A stretch of DNA of 64,000 nt, taken from NCBI GenBank assembly GCA_963705255.1, contig OY970061.1, positions 1,056,001 to 1,120,000 of the forward strand. Reading direction: 5' to 3'. The notes under the pieces are model-generated. The model was given only the letters and a program-made list of their open reading frames with translations. It did not search any database and was not told the origin of the DNA. Source of the DNA: an uncultured Methanoregulaceae archaeon. GTDB lineage: Archaea; Halobacteriota; Methanomicrobia; Methanomicrobiales; Methanospirillaceae. Of this stretch, positions 37,284 to 43,044 are shown one piece after another (within the stretch, counting starts at the first letter, position 1; each line of letters starts with the position of its first letter). Position numbers and translations under genes: made by a program.

Positions 37284-40200
37284 TTACTGTCCTGCCGTTT
37301 CCAGCCGGTAGGTCCCTCTGGGCACAATCAACTCAAACCGGGCCCCTTTGCCCGGCTCACCGCTCTCCCGGATGGTTATGCCGGTGATACTGAGGATCTC
37401 CCGGACAAGGTAGAGGCCCAGACCGGTATGTTTCCCTACGCCCCGCTCGAACAGGTGCTTTTTTATCTCTGGCGGGATCCCGGTACCGTTATCCTCAACT
37501 ACGATGATCAGTCCCTCGTCGGTTTCCTGGAATGAGATACGGATCATGGCCAGTCCTTCCTGACCGTGCTTGACCGCGTTGTCGATCAGGTTGTAAAAGA
37601 CCTTCTCAAGAAGGGGATCAGCGAACACTTCAAGGCCATCGCAGTCCACCTGGACCTTCACATTCCGGAGCGGGAGCGCCCCCGAGGCCATGTTGACGCT
37701 TGTGGCCACATCCTGCCAGGCCGGCGCGTTGAGCCCCATGTTCTGGTAATCCCTCGTGAACGCGATCTGGTTCCTGATAGCCCTCGCCGCTTTCAGTTCT
37801 TTCTGCACGAACTCGGCGAGCCGGGCCTTATCTTCGATAAAGCTCCCCGACAGTTCAAGGAAACCGATGAGCACGGTGAGCTGGTTGAGGATATCGTGGC
37901 GGGTGATGCTGTACAAAAGGTTGAGTTTCCGGTTGGCCTGTGACAAGGCCTCCTCAGCCCGCTTCCTCTCGGTGACATCAGAAAGGAAGACGAGGACTGC
38001 CGGCCGGCCTTCCCAGGTTATCAGGCTGACATTGATCTCCATCCAGCGGACTGCCCCGTTCTTGGCAAGTATCCGGAAGATGTAGTTGTGTTCCAGCTTC
38101 TCTCCGGCAAGACGCCTGCGGTGCTGGTCCTGGAGCGTTGCACGGTCATCCGGATGGATGAACTCCAGGAAGGGTTTCGCGGCAAGTTCTTCCGGAGTAT
38201 ACTGGCTGATCTCTTCGGCCTTCCCGTTTGTGAAGCATATCCTCTCGTCCTGAATAACGAAGATGGCCTCGTTCGCGTGGTCTACCAGCGTCCGGTACCG
38301 CTCTTCGCTTTCTTCCGCTTTCCGACGGCTTTCACCGAGGGCCTCGTTATTGGCCCGGAGTTCCTCCTCCATGCCGGTCAGGTGCTCGTTCGCCGCGTTC
38401 AGCTCCTCGTTCTTCCGGACGAGGTCCAGTTCTGCCTTCTTCCGCCGGGTGATGTCATCACAGACGACAAGGACACTGGTTTTCCCGTCCGGGCCGTTCA
38501 CCGCCCGGACATATTCCTCCACCCAGATGACGCTCCCGTCTTTTTTGACCTTCCGGAACTGCCAGTTGAAGATCTGACCGGTCGACTGCAGGCATTTTTT
38601 CAGCTGCTCAGCTACGGCAGGACGATCTTCCGGGTAAAAGACGTTGAGGACCGGCATGCCTTTCAGTTCCTCGACGGTATAGCCCAGCTGGCGTGCACCG
38701 AACCCGTTGACCGAGATCACGGTTCCATCCGGGTCCAGCGTGAAGAACATGGCAGGGGTGTCACGGTAGAGGGTCCGGTACCGCTCCTCGCTCTCCCGCA
38801 ATGCCCCCTCGTCCTGCAGGCGCCCGGTGATGTCCCGCAGGAAAAGGAGCATGGCACTTGCGCCTTTATAGGTAAGTTTTTTGCCAATGCACTCGATCCA
38901 CCGCTCGTTCTTGTTCGTGGTGATGATGCGGTAGTTCACGAAATAACTGTCAGTCCCTGCAGCAACCTGCATGAAATCCCGGATGGCGTTCAGCCGCATT
39001 TCCGGGGCTACGAAATCAAGGATATTGATCCTCATGGCAGGATCAAAGTCGGGGAGCTCGACGATCTCAACGGCCCTCCGGTTTGCAAAGAGGACCATTC
39101 CCAGGAAATCTACGATGATGATCCCATCGTTGGACAGTTCCACCATGGCGCGGAAGGTCTCCCCGCTCTCCCTCAGCGTCTGCTCTTTCGAACTGAGTTC
39201 GTCATAGTTTTGCCGGAGTTCTTCCTCGGTAGAAGTGAGCTCCTCGTACGCGGCATGGAGGTCCTCGCTGCGCCGGACCAGCGCCTCTTCGGTCTCCTTG
39301 AGATCGGTGATATCCCGCCCTACCGACAGGTATTCAGTGACCCGCCCGTCTTCGCCGTACAGTGCCCGGTCGGACCACTGCTGCCAGCGAATCTGCCCGT
39401 CGGGCATGATGATGCGGTACGTCACCGTGGCCACCGGGTGTTCCCGGGTCAGCGATGCAGGATGGTTCCTGACAAGCGTCCTGTCATCGTCATGAATTTC
39501 CGGGACAAATTTCCCGCCTATGATCTCCTCGCGCTGCCTGCCGAAATACCGGCAGTAGGCATCGTTGACAAAGACATGCGTGCCGTCCGGGAGGACCCGC
39601 GAGATGAGCTCGGTCTGGTCCTCGACCACACTCCGGTACCGGGCTTCGCTCTCTTTTAAGGCCGCTTCTGCCCGTTTGCGGTCGGTGATGTCCTTGAAGA
39701 TCCCACGGGTATACTGGGGCTTCCCGTCTGTCATCTTGCAGTTCGCAATCCCTTCGACATAGACTTTTCTCCCGTCGCGGGCCTGGAATACTGCGTCCAA
39801 AATCCCGACATTCTCGCCGGAGATCACCCGGGTGAACATCTCCTGGCAGTGATCCAGGCTGTCCTTGTGGATGATATCAAATATCCGGAGCCCGGGGAGG
39901 TCCTGTACCGAGTACCCGAGGATGTCCAGCCATTTTTTATTCACATAGAGGAAGCGCCCGTCCGGTGCAACGCTCTGGATCAGGTCATTGGCATTCTGGA
40001 GGTCATGGAACCGCTGCTCCTGCTCGGCCAGGGCGGTCTGTGCCTCCCGCATCAGGACAGATTTCCGGATCACGTGCATGAGTTCGGCGAACATGACTTT
40101 CGTGTCGCCGCCCTTCTGGAGGTAAAAGTCGGCCCCGCAGTTCAGGGCCTCGATCACGACCTCCTCGCGGCTCCGCCCGGTCAGCATGATGAACGGGATG

Positions 40201-40418
40201 AGGTTGCCGCCGGTCCTGACTATTTTTAAGAATTCGGTGCCGTTCATCTCCGGCATCTGGTAATCGGAGACGACGGCATCGTAGGTTTTCCTGCCCAAGG
40301 AGACGAGCGCCTCGCGGGCCGAGGTGACCGTGTCGACGCTGAACTCACCGCCCTGCTCAAGGAAGAGCTTGCCGATCTCGAGAAGGTCGGGTTCATCGTC
40401 TACATACAGGACCAGCAA
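37284..40418 (-). CDS. Hybrid receiver-PAS-histidine kinase
   Basis: Receiver, 5 PAS/PAC domains, ITRHDILNQL, YNLIDNA, DNGTGI and GLGL. Confidence 0.93.
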   Translation of the reverse strand: MLVLYVDDEPDLLEIGKLFLEQGGEFSVDTVTSAREALVSLGRKTYDAVVSDYQMPEMNGTEFLKIVRTGGNLIPFIMLTGRSREEVVIEALNCGADFYLQKGGDTKVMFAELMHVIRKSVLMREAQTALAEQEQRFHDLQNANDLIQSVAPDGRFLYVNKKWLDILGYSVQDLPGLRIFDIIHKDSLDHCQEMFTRVISGENVGILDAVFQARDGRKVYVEGIANCKMTDGKPQYTRGIFKDITDRKRAEAALKESEARYRSVVEDQTELISRVLPDGTHVFVNDAYCRYFGRQREEIIGGKFVPEIHDDDRTLVRNHPASLTREHPVATVTYRIIMPDGQIRWQQWSDRALYGEDGRVTEYLSVGRDITDLKETEEALVRRSEDLHAAYEELTSTEEELRQNYDELSSKEQTLRESGETFRAMVELSNDGIIIVDFLGMVLFANRRAVEIVELPDFDPAMRINILDFVAPEMRLNAIRDFMQVAAGTDSYFVNYRIITTNKNERWIECIGKKLTYKGASAMLLFLRDITGRLQDEGALRESEERYRTLYRDTPAMFFTLDPDGTVISVNGFGARQLGYTVEELKGMPVLNVFYPEDRPAVAEQLKKCLQSTGQIFNWQFRKVKKDGSVIWVEEYVRAVNGPDGKTSVLVVCDDITRRKKAELDLVRKNEELNAANEHLTGMEEELRANNEALGESRRKAEESEERYRTLVDHANEAIFVIQDERICFTNGKAEEISQYTPEELAAKPFLEFIHPDDRATLQDQHRRRLAGEKLEHNYIFRILAKNGAVRWMEINVSLITWEGRPAVLVFLSDVTERKRAEEALSQANRKLNLLYSITRHDILNQLTVLIGFLELSGSFIEDKARLAEFVQKELKAARAIRNQIAFTRDYQNMGLNAPAWQDVATSVNMASGALPLRNVKVQVDCDGLEVFADPLLEKVFYNLIDNAVKHGQEGLAMIRISFQETDEGLIIVVEDNGTGIPPEIKKHLFERGVGKHTGLGLYLVREILSITGITIRESGEPGKGARFELIVPRGTYRLETAGQ

Positions 40419-40920: not shown

Positions 40921-41114
40921 TCCCTTTTTTCTTCTTCCGTTGCCTGATGAGAAGCGGAGGCTTTGCGGAATCTTGGATTCCTGTGCCTTATCCGGGATAT
41001 GCAACCTATGCGGAGCGAAGGCAGTGATTGGAGATCCCTGTGGAGGGCGTCACCAGTTTGAAGGGCATAAAACGAAAACGTTCTTTTCAAAAATATTCAC
41101 AAAATCGTGGTTTA

Positions 41115-41187
41115 CGCCCAGGTCGGAATTCGAATCCGAGTCGATTGCGTGACAGGCAATCATGATAGGCCGCTACACTACCTGGGC
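41115..41187 (-). tRNA. tRNA-Asp(GTC)
   Basis: GCCCAGG/CCTGGGC acceptor stem, ATTGC-CTGTCAC-GCAAT anticodon arm, TTCGAAT T-loop; no encoded CCA. Confidence 0.96.
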
Positions 41188-41200
41188 ATTGTTACAGTAA

Positions 41201-41306
41201 TCCCGCCTCCCAGATTCGAACCGGGGACATCGCGGTAGCCGCGCAGTTGCCTGAATCGGCAAACCATACTACAGCCGCGCACTCTACCAGGCTGAGTTAA
41301 GGCGGG
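41201..41306 (-). tRNA. tRNA-Tyr(GTA) with a 32-nt intron at 37/38 (41237-41268)
   Basis: CCCGCCT/AGGCGGG acceptor stem; BHB formed by CUGU:GCGG helix with AG|U and CU|A bulges. Confidence 0.95.
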
Positions 41307-41476
41307 GCACTGCGCTACTAATGTTAGGCAAGTTTGCTATTAAACGTATCGTAATGCCCGTGGATTCCATACCGTAAAAACCGCCGATCAGTGAGTGGTG
41401 CAGGATCCGGCGTGAAAATGCGCCACGCATTTTCAGTAACCGTGCAGAACGCGATTTTACGCGTTCAACACGCTTA

Positions 41477-41484
41477 TTTATATA
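41477..41484 (+). promoter_or_regulatory. TATA box (TTTATATA) of leuA
   Basis: Consensus archaeal TATA ending 23 nt before the ATG at 41508. Confidence 0.7.
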
Positions 41485-41507
41485 ATCTGCACACCTATTC
41501 TGTTTGT

Positions 41508-41555
41508 ATGACTGCTCGCAAGGATGTTGCGGGGGATCGTCTTCTTCACCGATAG
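41508..41555 (+). CDS. Putative leaderless leader peptide MTARKDVAGDRLLHR overlapping the leuA start
   Basis: ATG at the predicted TSS; tandem CTT CTT Leu codons at 41541-41546; TAG at 41553-41555. Confidence 0.5.
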   Translation: MTARKDVAGDRLLHR

Positions 41556-43044
41556 CTCGGCGCATGAAGATGTGACTGTTTTTGATACTACGCTCCGGGA
41601 CGGAGAACAAACCCCGGGGATTGCATTCACCTTTGAACAGAAACTTGAGATCGCACGCCAGCTCTCCGATATCGGCGTCCATGCAATCGAGGCAGGGTTC
41701 CCTGCGTCCTCGAAGGCCGAGAAGGAGACGGTGACCGCCATCAAGAAACTCGGTCTTGAGTCAGTGATCTGCGGGCTTGCCCGCTCCACAAAAGCCGACG
41801 TGGACGCCTGTCTCGACTGCGATGTCGATCTGGTGCACGTCTTCATCCCGACCTCGGATATCCAGCGGGAGAACACGATCAACAAGAGCCGGAAGGAAGT
41901 ACTCGGGATCACGGCCGAGATCATCGGCTATATCCGGAAGCACTCCGATCTCTGCATGTTCTCCGCCATGGACGCGACGCGGACGGACTGGGACTACCTG
42001 ATCGAGGTCTTCCAGACCGCTGCCGATGCCGGGGCCACGATCATCAACGTGCCGGACACGGTGGGAGTCATCTCCCCTTCCGCGATGAAGACGCTCATCA
42101 CCCGGATCAACAGGGAGGTCAGGTGCCCTATCGACGTCCACTGCCACAACGACTTCGGCCTCGCGGTCGCCAACACGATCGCGGCCGTCGAAGCCGGCGC
42201 CTCGCAGGTGCAGGTGACCGTGAACGGGCTCGGGGAGCGGGCCGGCAACGCAGACCTCGCCCAGACCGTGATGATCATGGAGTCGATGTACCGTATCAGG
42301 ACCGGGATCAGGAAGGAACGCCTCGTCGAGACCTCGCGGCTCGTCTCCCGCTTCTCCGGCATCGGCATCCCGCCGATCCAGCCGGTCGTGGGCGAGAACG
42401 TCTTCTCGCACGAGAGCGGCATCCACTCGCACGGGGTCCTCAGGAACTCGGCCACGTTCGAGCCGGGCATCATGACCCCGGAGATGGTGGGCCACCGCCG
42501 CAGGCTCACGCTCGGGAAGCATGTGGGCCGGCACGCGGTCCACCAGATGCTCGCCGACGTCCACATTGACCCTACCGGCCCCCAGCTTGACGCAATTGTC
42601 GAGAAGGTCAAGGCCGTCGCGAACAAGGGCAAGAGGGTGACCGATGCCGATCTCTATGAGATTGCCGAGAGCGTCATGGGCATCGAGCTGAACAACAAGA
42701 CGCTCGATTTACAGGACATCGCCATCATGACCGGCAACCACGCCATCCCCACCGCAAGCGTCCGGGCGATGGTGAATGGCAGGGAACATGTCTTCTCCGC
42801 GGTAGGGAACGGCCCGGTCGATGCGGCACTCAACGCGATCCTCGGGATCACGCCCTCGAAACTCCAGCTCAAGGAGTTCAACATCGAGGCGATCTCCGGC
42901 GGTTCCGACGCGATCTGTCACGTCACTATCGCGGTCGAGGACGAGCACGGCAAGATCTTCGATGCCAGCGGAAGCGGGGACGATATTGTCCTCTCCTCGG
43001 TCGAGGCGCTGGTCAACGCGATCAACCTGATCAACCGGGTGTAG
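41524..43044 (+). CDS. leuA: 2-isopropylmalate synthase
   Basis: DTTLRDGEQ, HCHNDFG, GLGERAGN, HESGIH, TFEPGIMTPEMVG and regulatory domain GNGPVDA; CimA not fully excluded. Confidence 0.85.
   Translation: MLRGIVFFTDSSAHEDVTVFDTTLRDGEQTPGIAFTFEQKLEIARQLSDIGVHAIEAGFPASSKAEKETVTAIKKLGLESVICGLARSTKADVDACLDCDVDLVHVFIPTSDIQRENTINKSRKEVLGITAEIIGYIRKHSDLCMFSAMDATRTDWDYLIEVFQTAADAGATIINVPDTVGVISPSAMKTLITRINREVRCPIDVHCHNDFGLAVANTIAAVEAGASQVQVTVNGLGERAGNADLAQTVMIMESMYRIRTGIRKERLVETSRLVSRFSGIGIPPIQPVVGENVFSHESGIHSHGVLRNSATFEPGIMTPEMVGHRRRLTLGKHVGRHAVHQMLADVHIDPTGPQLDAIVEKVKAVANKGKRVTDADLYEIAESVMGIELNNKTLDLQDIAIMTGNHAIPTASVRAMVNGREHVFSAVGNGPVDAALNAILGITPSKLQLKEFNIEAISGGSDAICHVTIAVEDEHGKIFDASGSGDDIVLSSVEALVNAINLINRV

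Follow-up and report, generated by a model that had tools for sequence, protein, structure and literature searches.

Programmed +1 frameshifting at sense codons is known from yeast Ty1 and ABP140, in which the site is CUU-AGG-C, and from influenza PA-X (UUU-CGU), and frameshifting induced by starvation is known as a laboratory phenomenon. In prfB, +1 shifting is stimulated by the geometry of a Shine–Dalgarno (SD)-like element lying close upstream of the codon in the ribosomal P site. To our knowledge, archaea lack attenuators of the bacterial type. The prfB site is CUU-UGA-C with AGGGGG as the SD-like element. A general account is given in extracts of two reviews, PMC8211752 and PMC5009743. 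According to the extract of the former, a 2021 review of archaeal recoding, the -1 frameshift in fucA1 of Saccharolobus solfataricus is the only one demonstrated in a cellular archaeal gene; the extract of the latter, from 2016, adds only a likely magnesium-chelatase frameshift for archaea, and leuA and cimA are found in neither extract. Here, the 5' end of leuA, the gene of 2-isopropylmalate synthase, was analyzed in a stretch of 64,000 nucleotides (positions 1,056,001 to 1,120,000 of contig OY970061.1, hereafter the window) from the genome of an uncultured Methanoregulaceae archaeon. We consider it moderately probable, judging from the sequence comparisons presented below, that leuA is expressed by a prfB-like programmed +1 frameshift at a YUU-Leu dicodon, set off when the cognate codon is decoded slowly.

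The features of the locus are listed below with their positions in the window; the frame of the upstream ATG is called the 0 frame and leuA lies in the +1 frame.

41477 to 41484, forward strand: TATA box TTTATATA of the leuA promoter, from direct inspection of the sequence and conserved spacing in orthologues
41508 to 41510, forward strand: conserved ATG, start codon of the 0 frame at the predicted transcription start, for which the mRNA would be leaderless
41508 to 41555, forward strand: 15-codon 0-frame open reading frame (ORF) MTARKDVAGDRLLHR, ended by a stop and overlapping the leuA 5' end, from the sequence
41509 to 41511, forward strand: TGA in the leuA frame, shutting that frame just past the predicted transcription start, from frame reading
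41512 to 43044, forward strand: leuA reading frame (2-isopropylmalate synthase), from the NF002085 match and the JGI name
41524 to 41529, forward strand: leuA-frame ATG (41524) and TTG (41527), at which gene callers place the start, from relatives and public annotations
41531 to 41538, forward strand: SD-like GGGGGATC, candidate upstream stimulator, from a predicted 8-bp duplex with the 16S rRNA 3' tail
41541 to 41543, forward strand: CTT, proposed slippery P-site codon of the 0 frame with +1 re-pairing on TTC, from codon counts in relatives
41544 to 41546, forward strand: CTT (Leu), proposed sensor codon in the 0-frame A site, from codon counts in relatives
41553 to 41555, forward strand: TAG of the 0-frame ORF, at which non-shifting ribosomes would end, from the sequence

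The 0-frame ORF reads ATG ACT GCT CGC AAG GAT GTT GCG GGG GAT CGT CTT CTT CAC CGA TAG and its sole Leu codons are the tandem CTT-CTT at 41541-41546, which the leuA frame reads as TTC-TTC. As gene callers would take it, leuA extends from the ATG at 41524 to 43044 (506 codons), with the catalytic core of the protein beginning with FDTTLRDGEQ at about 41581. The product scored 674 bits against the NF002085 cut-off of 517, which assigns it to the LeuA family, and its relatives possess the PF00682, PF22617 and PF08502 domains and the JGI name 2-isopropylmalate synthase. An earlier sequence-only reading had singled out the TATA box, the ATG at 41508, the 15-codon ORF, the tandem CTT-CTT and the position of leuA in the +1 frame, and each of these agreed base for base with the sequence.

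In the proposed mechanism, the leuA mRNA would begin at the ATG at 41508, or one or two bases from it, and ribosomes would start one base behind the leuA frame. Twelve codons on, the peptidyl-tRNA would sit on CUU (41541-41543) with the Leu codon CUU (41544-41546) in the A site. With charged tRNA-Leu(GAG) plentiful, this codon would be read, followed by two more codons and the TAG, and a 15-residue peptide would be released. With charged tRNA-Leu(GAG) scarce, the A site would stay empty and the P-site tRNA would slip +1, from CUU to UUC, in Methanoregula probably aided by a duplex that GGGGGAUC would form with the 3' tail of the 16S rRNA only 2 nt upstream. The product made in the leuA frame after the slip would read M..GDRL-FTDSS...FDTTLRDGEQ, and leucine shortage would thus switch on the leucine-making enzyme. 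The signal common to leuA and its paralogue cimA would be GAU-YGY-YUU followed by the cognate codon.

Like prfB, the locus combines a short 5' ORF in the 0 frame, a CUU-type P-site codon, a putatively slow A-site codon, an early 0-frame stop and a product in the +1 frame; in Methanoregula an SD-like element is also found very near upstream, and one relative (L119) reads CTT CTT TGA C. Unlike in prfB, the slow codon here would be decoded as a sense codon by an aminoacyl-tRNA, so that an amino acid would be sensed instead of the protein that the gene encodes. The locus is also archaeal, its mRNA probably has no leader, and the SD-like element is missing from some relatives. The proposed slip resembles that of Ty1, ABP140 and PA-X, in which CUU or UUU in the P site slips to UUN as the A site holds a sense codon that is decoded slowly; in these, however, the slow codon is just a rare one and the shift rate is fixed, whereas in leuA and cimA the codon specifies the amino acid in which the pathway ends, which implies regulation. 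The short 5' ORF with codons of the amino acid to whose synthesis the enzyme contributes, and ribosome speed on it as the putative signal, resemble the attenuation of bacterial leu, ilv and phe operons (for pheL as a leader-peptide case, see PMC3082878). In contrast to attenuation, leuA has no terminator and antiterminator hairpins, the leader overlaps the coding sequence out of frame, its cognate codons number one to three instead of forming a run, and recoding, not transcription termination, would determine the output. With fucA1 the locus shares the arrangement of an archaeal cellular gene across two overlapping frames, but fucA1 uses a -1 shift on A-AAA-AAT in the middle of the gene, in one species and with no known regulatory logic. 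The ornithine decarboxylase antizyme (extract of PMC8211752) is also a +1 shift serving as sensor and effector in metabolite feedback; unlike the system proposed for leuA, it is eukaryotic, its ligand is a polyamine to which the ribosome responds at a stop codon, and an inhibitor protein exerts the negative feedback.

Since a run of five G (41531-41535) is located between the ATG at 41508 and the leuA catalytic core, a one-base assembly error had to be ruled out first. The genome is a single 2.6-Mb contig with a completeness of 89.5%. Public sequencing runs were read as assembled contigs, which can drop rare variants, and stretches without RNA cover count as no evidence. DNA contigs from two studies spanned the site with 0 gaps (41505-42300 with 3 differences and 41300-42168 with 31 differences), and so did RNA-library contigs from two studies (41527-41787 and 41522-41600), whose freedom from inserted or deleted letters argues also against a correction at the RNA level. 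The identical run of five G and the identical frame offset were present in more than 60 other Methanoregula assemblies. Relatives and independent contigs thus agree, and the leuA frame offset is not an assembly artefact. The sequence-only reading had warned of indel errors and had advised checking reads: such errors do occur elsewhere in the assembly, as in the tRNA-Ile(GAU) anticodon loop of 8 nt (the normal 7 in 9/9 relatives), but at leuA the contigs of the public runs revealed none.

To compare the site among relatives, leuA orthologues were drawn from 30 relatives, from 80 contigs (Methanoregula, Methanolinea, Methanoculleus and other Methanoregulaceae) and from 40 of 130 order-level matches. 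Left out of the final analyses were L003 and L106 (too little upstream DNA), L030 (a paralogue) and L076, L080, L091, L092 and L093 (no match to the protein pattern), and L060 is missing only from the count of 101 loci, which used a stricter pattern for the first residue. An ATG picked solely by its distance from a TATA-like 8-mer lay at 1 mod 3 from the leuA frame in 99 of these 101 loci, the two misses being wrong picks, which makes the offset more than chance. Distances from this ATG to leuA were 70, 73, 79, 85, 88, 97 and 103 nt, all differing by multiples of 3. When the 0 frame was walked upstream from the conserved block, an out-of-frame ATG was reached in 141/141 Methanomicrobiales leuA loci, of which 127 had a TATA-like 8-mer, matching at 6 or more of 8 positions, that started 26-35 nt, mostly 29-33 nt, 5' of it. 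The orthologous 0-frame ORFs were 14-35 codons long, with the stop from 1 to 7 or more codons past the sensor. The alignment advised by the sequence-only reading therefore bore it out: an out-of-frame ATG about 24 nt past the TATA box and a GAT-YGY-YTT-CTT block were found throughout the Methanomicrobiales set, and no motif-bearing relative had this ATG in frame or lacked it.

In the 0 frame, the sensor codon coded for Leu in 141/141 Methanomicrobiales loci (CTT in 138, CTA in 3) and in 13/13 motif-bearing loci of the outgroup (TTA, CTA or CTT), giving 154/154 in total. The leuA-frame codon ending at the C of the sensor was TTC, ATC or GTC in all 141 loci, with an invariant third position, although the other Phe codons of the same leuA loci were divided between TTT (174) and TTC (185). 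In outgroup leuA genes in which the next residue is Tyr, both TTT and TTC occurred, each of them yielding Leu in the 0 frame, and TTT-TTY, which would place Phe at the 0-frame sensor, was never seen. The 0-frame Leu codon is thus kept at the cost of a synonymous choice in the leuA frame. The codon before the sensor was CTT in 80, TTT in 44 and another codon in 17 of the 141 loci, and a slippery YUU-Leu dicodon was present in 138/141 when the CTT-CTC register was counted. A stop codon of the prfB type did not occupy the A site, the codon there being a Leu sense codon in 141/141 loci, and only in L119 did TGA adjoin CTT.

A comparable arrangement with a different codon was found in a leuA paralogue of about 500 residues, 41-43% identical to LeuA, which JGI calls (R)- or D-citramalate synthase and UniRef CimA. 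In methanogens, citramalate synthase opens the isoleucine branch. At the 5' end of cimA, an SD-like GGTG is followed by ATG-AG(T/G)-GAT-YGY-TTT-ATT, whose ATG is again offset by one base. The sensor position coded for Ile in 19/20 Methanomicrobiales loci and in 15/15 motif-bearing outgroup loci (34/35), and ordinary starts were seen in the other 5 outgroup cimA loci. An Ile codon at this position forces the main frame onto TTA for Leu, a codon accounting for 2.6% of Leu codons in the window genome. In cimA of family f10, the 0-frame ORF consisted only of M-R-D-R-F-I-stop, and the main frame opened after a TGA without a start codon. The third paralogue, an aksA-like homocitrate synthase of coenzyme B synthesis, had a plain SD sequence and an in-frame ATG in the two genomes inspected. 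As in leader ORFs, the short ORFs contained codons of the amino acid that would regulate the gene, Leu in leuA and Ile in cimA. The Leu codon kept against a synonymous leuA position and the Ile codon in its place in cimA lend support to the idea of leucine sensing put forward in the sequence-only reading. A strict genome-wide scan of the window genome gave 5 matches (leuA, cimA, one inside leuA and two unrelated) and no further gene with the motif and a long +1 ORF; the two unrelated matches were a histidine kinase and a non-coding frame.

The window genome's own cimA is located outside the window (C1:640447-641919, reverse strand) and combines the offset ATG with Ile at the sensor codon. Its body is in two pieces, a 455-codon open frame and a separate C-terminal match, a split probably caused by an assembly indel. 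In L027 and L028 (family f4), leuA and the cimA-like gene are in head-to-head orientation on the two strands with about 230-270 bp between them, and both have a separate out-of-frame start.

Outside Methanomicrobiales, leuA was sampled at 20 loci belonging to other families of the phylum. The out-of-frame start with the conserved block was present in 13 of them, from eight families, and the other 7, from five families, had an ordinary in-frame ATG and no block. The block after the start read (A/G)GG-(G/A)AT-CG(C/T)-TTT-TTA or a close variant, and the main frame G-I-(A/V)-F-Y in most loci, with V-S-V-F-Y, V-V-I-F-Y and G-I-A-F-F in three. In four outgroup loci (L173, L177, L179 and L180), a leuA-frame TGA stood immediately 5' of the conserved GGG. 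A wider proposal is that in several methanogen orders LeuA and CimA, the first enzymes of the leucine and isoleucine branches, are controlled by amino-acid-specific "hungry codon" +1 frameshifting. Either enzyme would be made only if a ribosome that began in the wrong frame is kept waiting at the single sensor codon for Leu-tRNA or Ile-tRNA, respectively, and this would be an ancient archaeal counterpart of bacterial attenuation in which a codon swap could reprogram the specificity. This proposal seems to us evenly poised between right and wrong.

The position of the putative shift could be bounded by stop codons. Counting from the C of the invariant CTT (41544 in the window), leuA-frame stops occur at -20 to -18 in L150 and L111, and the 0-frame stop is at +3 in L119, so that any shift would be confined to about 20 nt around the CTT codons. 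Within this region of Methanoregula, GGGGGAUC was predicted to form an 8-bp duplex with the genome's 16S tail GGAUCACCUCCU (-10.9 kcal/mol), ending 2 nt before the P-site codon. Compared with all windows along the gene, the duplex at the locus studied here ranked in the top 1.6% by strength, those of the Methanoregula loci bearing GATCG in the top 0.3-2.6%, and those of two GATTGC variants at 3.6-5.5%; families f3, f7 and f10 also had a strong duplex. No conserved RNA fold was found at the slip site by RNAalifold in the alignment of leuA loci (-0.16 kcal/mol). A hairpin enclosing the slip site (ATCG..CGAT and variants), for which visual inspection had suggested compensatory changes, was not supported, with 61.4% paired against 59.3% in shuffles and an equally good score after a slide of +3. 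By RNAalifold and by pair counts against shuffles, the locus had no terminator and antiterminator hairpins of the kind used in transcription attenuation.

Several observations weigh against a leucine-dependent shift at the sensor codon. The transcription start of leuA is placed by TATA spacing, and the start of the RNA-library contigs at 41522 and 41527, 5' of which RNA cover is missing, is no more than a weak hint of its position. An in-frame ATG or TTG is present here and in most Methanoregulaceae, and shifting is not strictly needed there; since these genomes keep the TTG, and often the ATG, some LeuA may be made without shifting in the window genome and in most Methanoregulaceae. CTT is not rare, making up 19% of Leu codons, and the 0 frame contains just one to three Leu codons. 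In 13 loci CTT is preceded by CAT, which would re-pair poorly, and these carry CTT-CTC in the next register. Methanoculleus lacks the SD-like duplex (-1.2 kcal/mol) and in four families it is of intermediate strength, so that it is not a universal requirement. One locus (L154 of genome G026, family f4) is the sole cimA-like gene with a Leu codon (CTT) instead of Ile at the sensor, which may reflect a change of specificity or cross-regulation. The relatives are non-independent samples, and the distinction of cimA from leuA rests on automatic source annotations, both matching the same NCBIfam subfamily model; NCBIfam was dropped for this reason as a means of separating LeuA from CimA. Finally, the leuA frame 5' of the proposed slip, G-I-(V/A)-F, varies mostly synonymously, and the 0 frame there reads (D/N/Y)-(R/C)-(L/F/H).

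This last pattern fits an earlier shift at G(G/C)N-N, and the foremost alternative, in our view unlikely, is a constitutive and required +1 shift a few codons upstream. The P-site codon would then be GGG (41532-41534; GCA or GCG in other families), the base at 41535 would be skipped, and translation would continue on ATC GTC TTC TTC to give M..AG-IVFFTDS, leaving the Leu codon irrelevant or a back-up. Such a site would account for the Gly or Ala codon of the 0 frame at -12 (G 88, A 35, K 1), where the leuA frame gives G, R, Q or E, and for a leuA frame that is conservative from -8 (I 100, T 14, V 9, followed by V/A and F/I) where the 0 frame is not, the variable positions being mostly leuA-frame third positions. 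Perfect re-pairing is possible at GGG-G, but GCA-G and GCG-T allow none. The main frame of cimA, V-I-A-L-F, is similar. The same nucleotides could, however, be constrained as an SD-like stimulator and as E-site and P-site context rather than as codons, and an earlier shift leaves unexplained why the 0-frame Leu of leuA and Ile of cimA were kept against synonymous drift.

Alternatively, there would be no frameshift, and the short ORF would be a regulatory leader peptide with the cognate codon, LeuA being initiated in its own frame at ATG 41524 or TTG 41527 and elsewhere at near-cognate CTG, ACG, AAG or ATC; this we regard as improbable. The in-frame ATG or TTG of the window and of most Methanoregulaceae would serve as such starts, and the leuA-frame codon at -17, at which public annotations start, is mostly ATG, TTG/CTG, AAG or ACG (L 80, K 14, M 12 and T 7 of 124 unique sequences); in cimA, a GTG comes straight after ATGA in 17/20 loci. 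Against this, in 7/29 leuA loci the stretch from the last leuA-frame stop to FDTTLRDGEQ contained no in-frame ATG, GTG or TTG, and in outgroup leuA and in f10 and f7 cimA the main-frame TGA directly 5' of GGG leaves only ATY. Methanoculleus loci such as L015 and L016 likewise offer no start in the leuA frame. A ribosome stalled at the sensor would moreover cover the supposed start, with the consequence that starvation would lower the output, and a hairpin switch found no support in the structure predictions.

The annotated starts are themselves heterogeneous, a further point against initiation of LeuA in its own frame. Gene callers do start leuA at the ATG at 41524, as the sequence-only reading had noted, but this codon is not conserved, being ATT or ATA in many Methanoregula, whereas the in-frame TTG at 41527 is conserved, though only within the genus or family (most Methanoregulaceae keep TTG, often ATG). 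Public LeuA N-termini read MLRGIVFF, MRGIVFF, MKRTVFF, MRTVFF and MHLGTLKRTVFF, and the differences from genus to genus suggest that gene callers guess the starts. At least five public LeuA N-termini would be concerned, probably all of them partly wrong. The proteins with these varying N-termini are 505-518 residues long (records P0131, P0222, P0229, P0230 and P0231).

An artefactual offset (a homopolymer indel in the run of five G, where dropping one G would join ATG 41508 to leuA) or an RNA-level correction by transcriptional slippage or editing is very improbable, even with the indels seen elsewhere (the tRNA-Ile loop, the two-piece cimA) and a completeness of 89.5%, since the same offset recurs in all 141 loci from independent assemblies, including families without the G run, DNA and RNA-library contigs of two studies each cover 41522-41600 with 0 gaps, and the long homopolymer needed for RNA polymerase slippage is absent.

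If true, the frameshift at the sensor codon would make leuA the first cellular archaeal gene with a programmed +1 frameshift. It would also be the first natural starvation-induced frameshift acting as a feedback sensor of an amino-acid pathway, and it would answer how gene expression in archaea responds to the supply of branched-chain amino acids. A full-text literature search for frameshifting together with isopropylmalate or citramalate synthase and archaea returned nothing relevant. In the extract of the M. mazei ribosome profiling paper PMC11456600, leuA, leucine and frameshifting are absent from the main text, and the supplementary tables of upstream ORFs may bear on the question.

The tRNA-Ile(GAU) gene is situated outside the window (contig C1:2310942-2311019, reverse strand). 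Its loop reads CTCGATAA, in place of CTGATAA in 9/9 relatives, and the extra base is most likely a one-base assembly insertion. A quadruplet-decoding tRNA, suggested by the ARAGORN anticodon "cgat", was dropped as a candidate given the normal tRNA-Ile(GAU) loop of the relatives.

Upstream of leuA, the opposite strand carries a tRNA-Asp gene (41114-41188). Beside it, an intron-containing second tRNA gene (41201-41306, reverse strand) was detected by ARAGORN with introns allowed and missed in the default scan; its identity call (Asp, gtc) is doubtful. Further upstream, the translation of a 1044-codon ORF (37284-40418, reverse strand) shows, on inspection by eye, a receiver domain, PAS-like segments that recur and an end resembling a histidine kinase.

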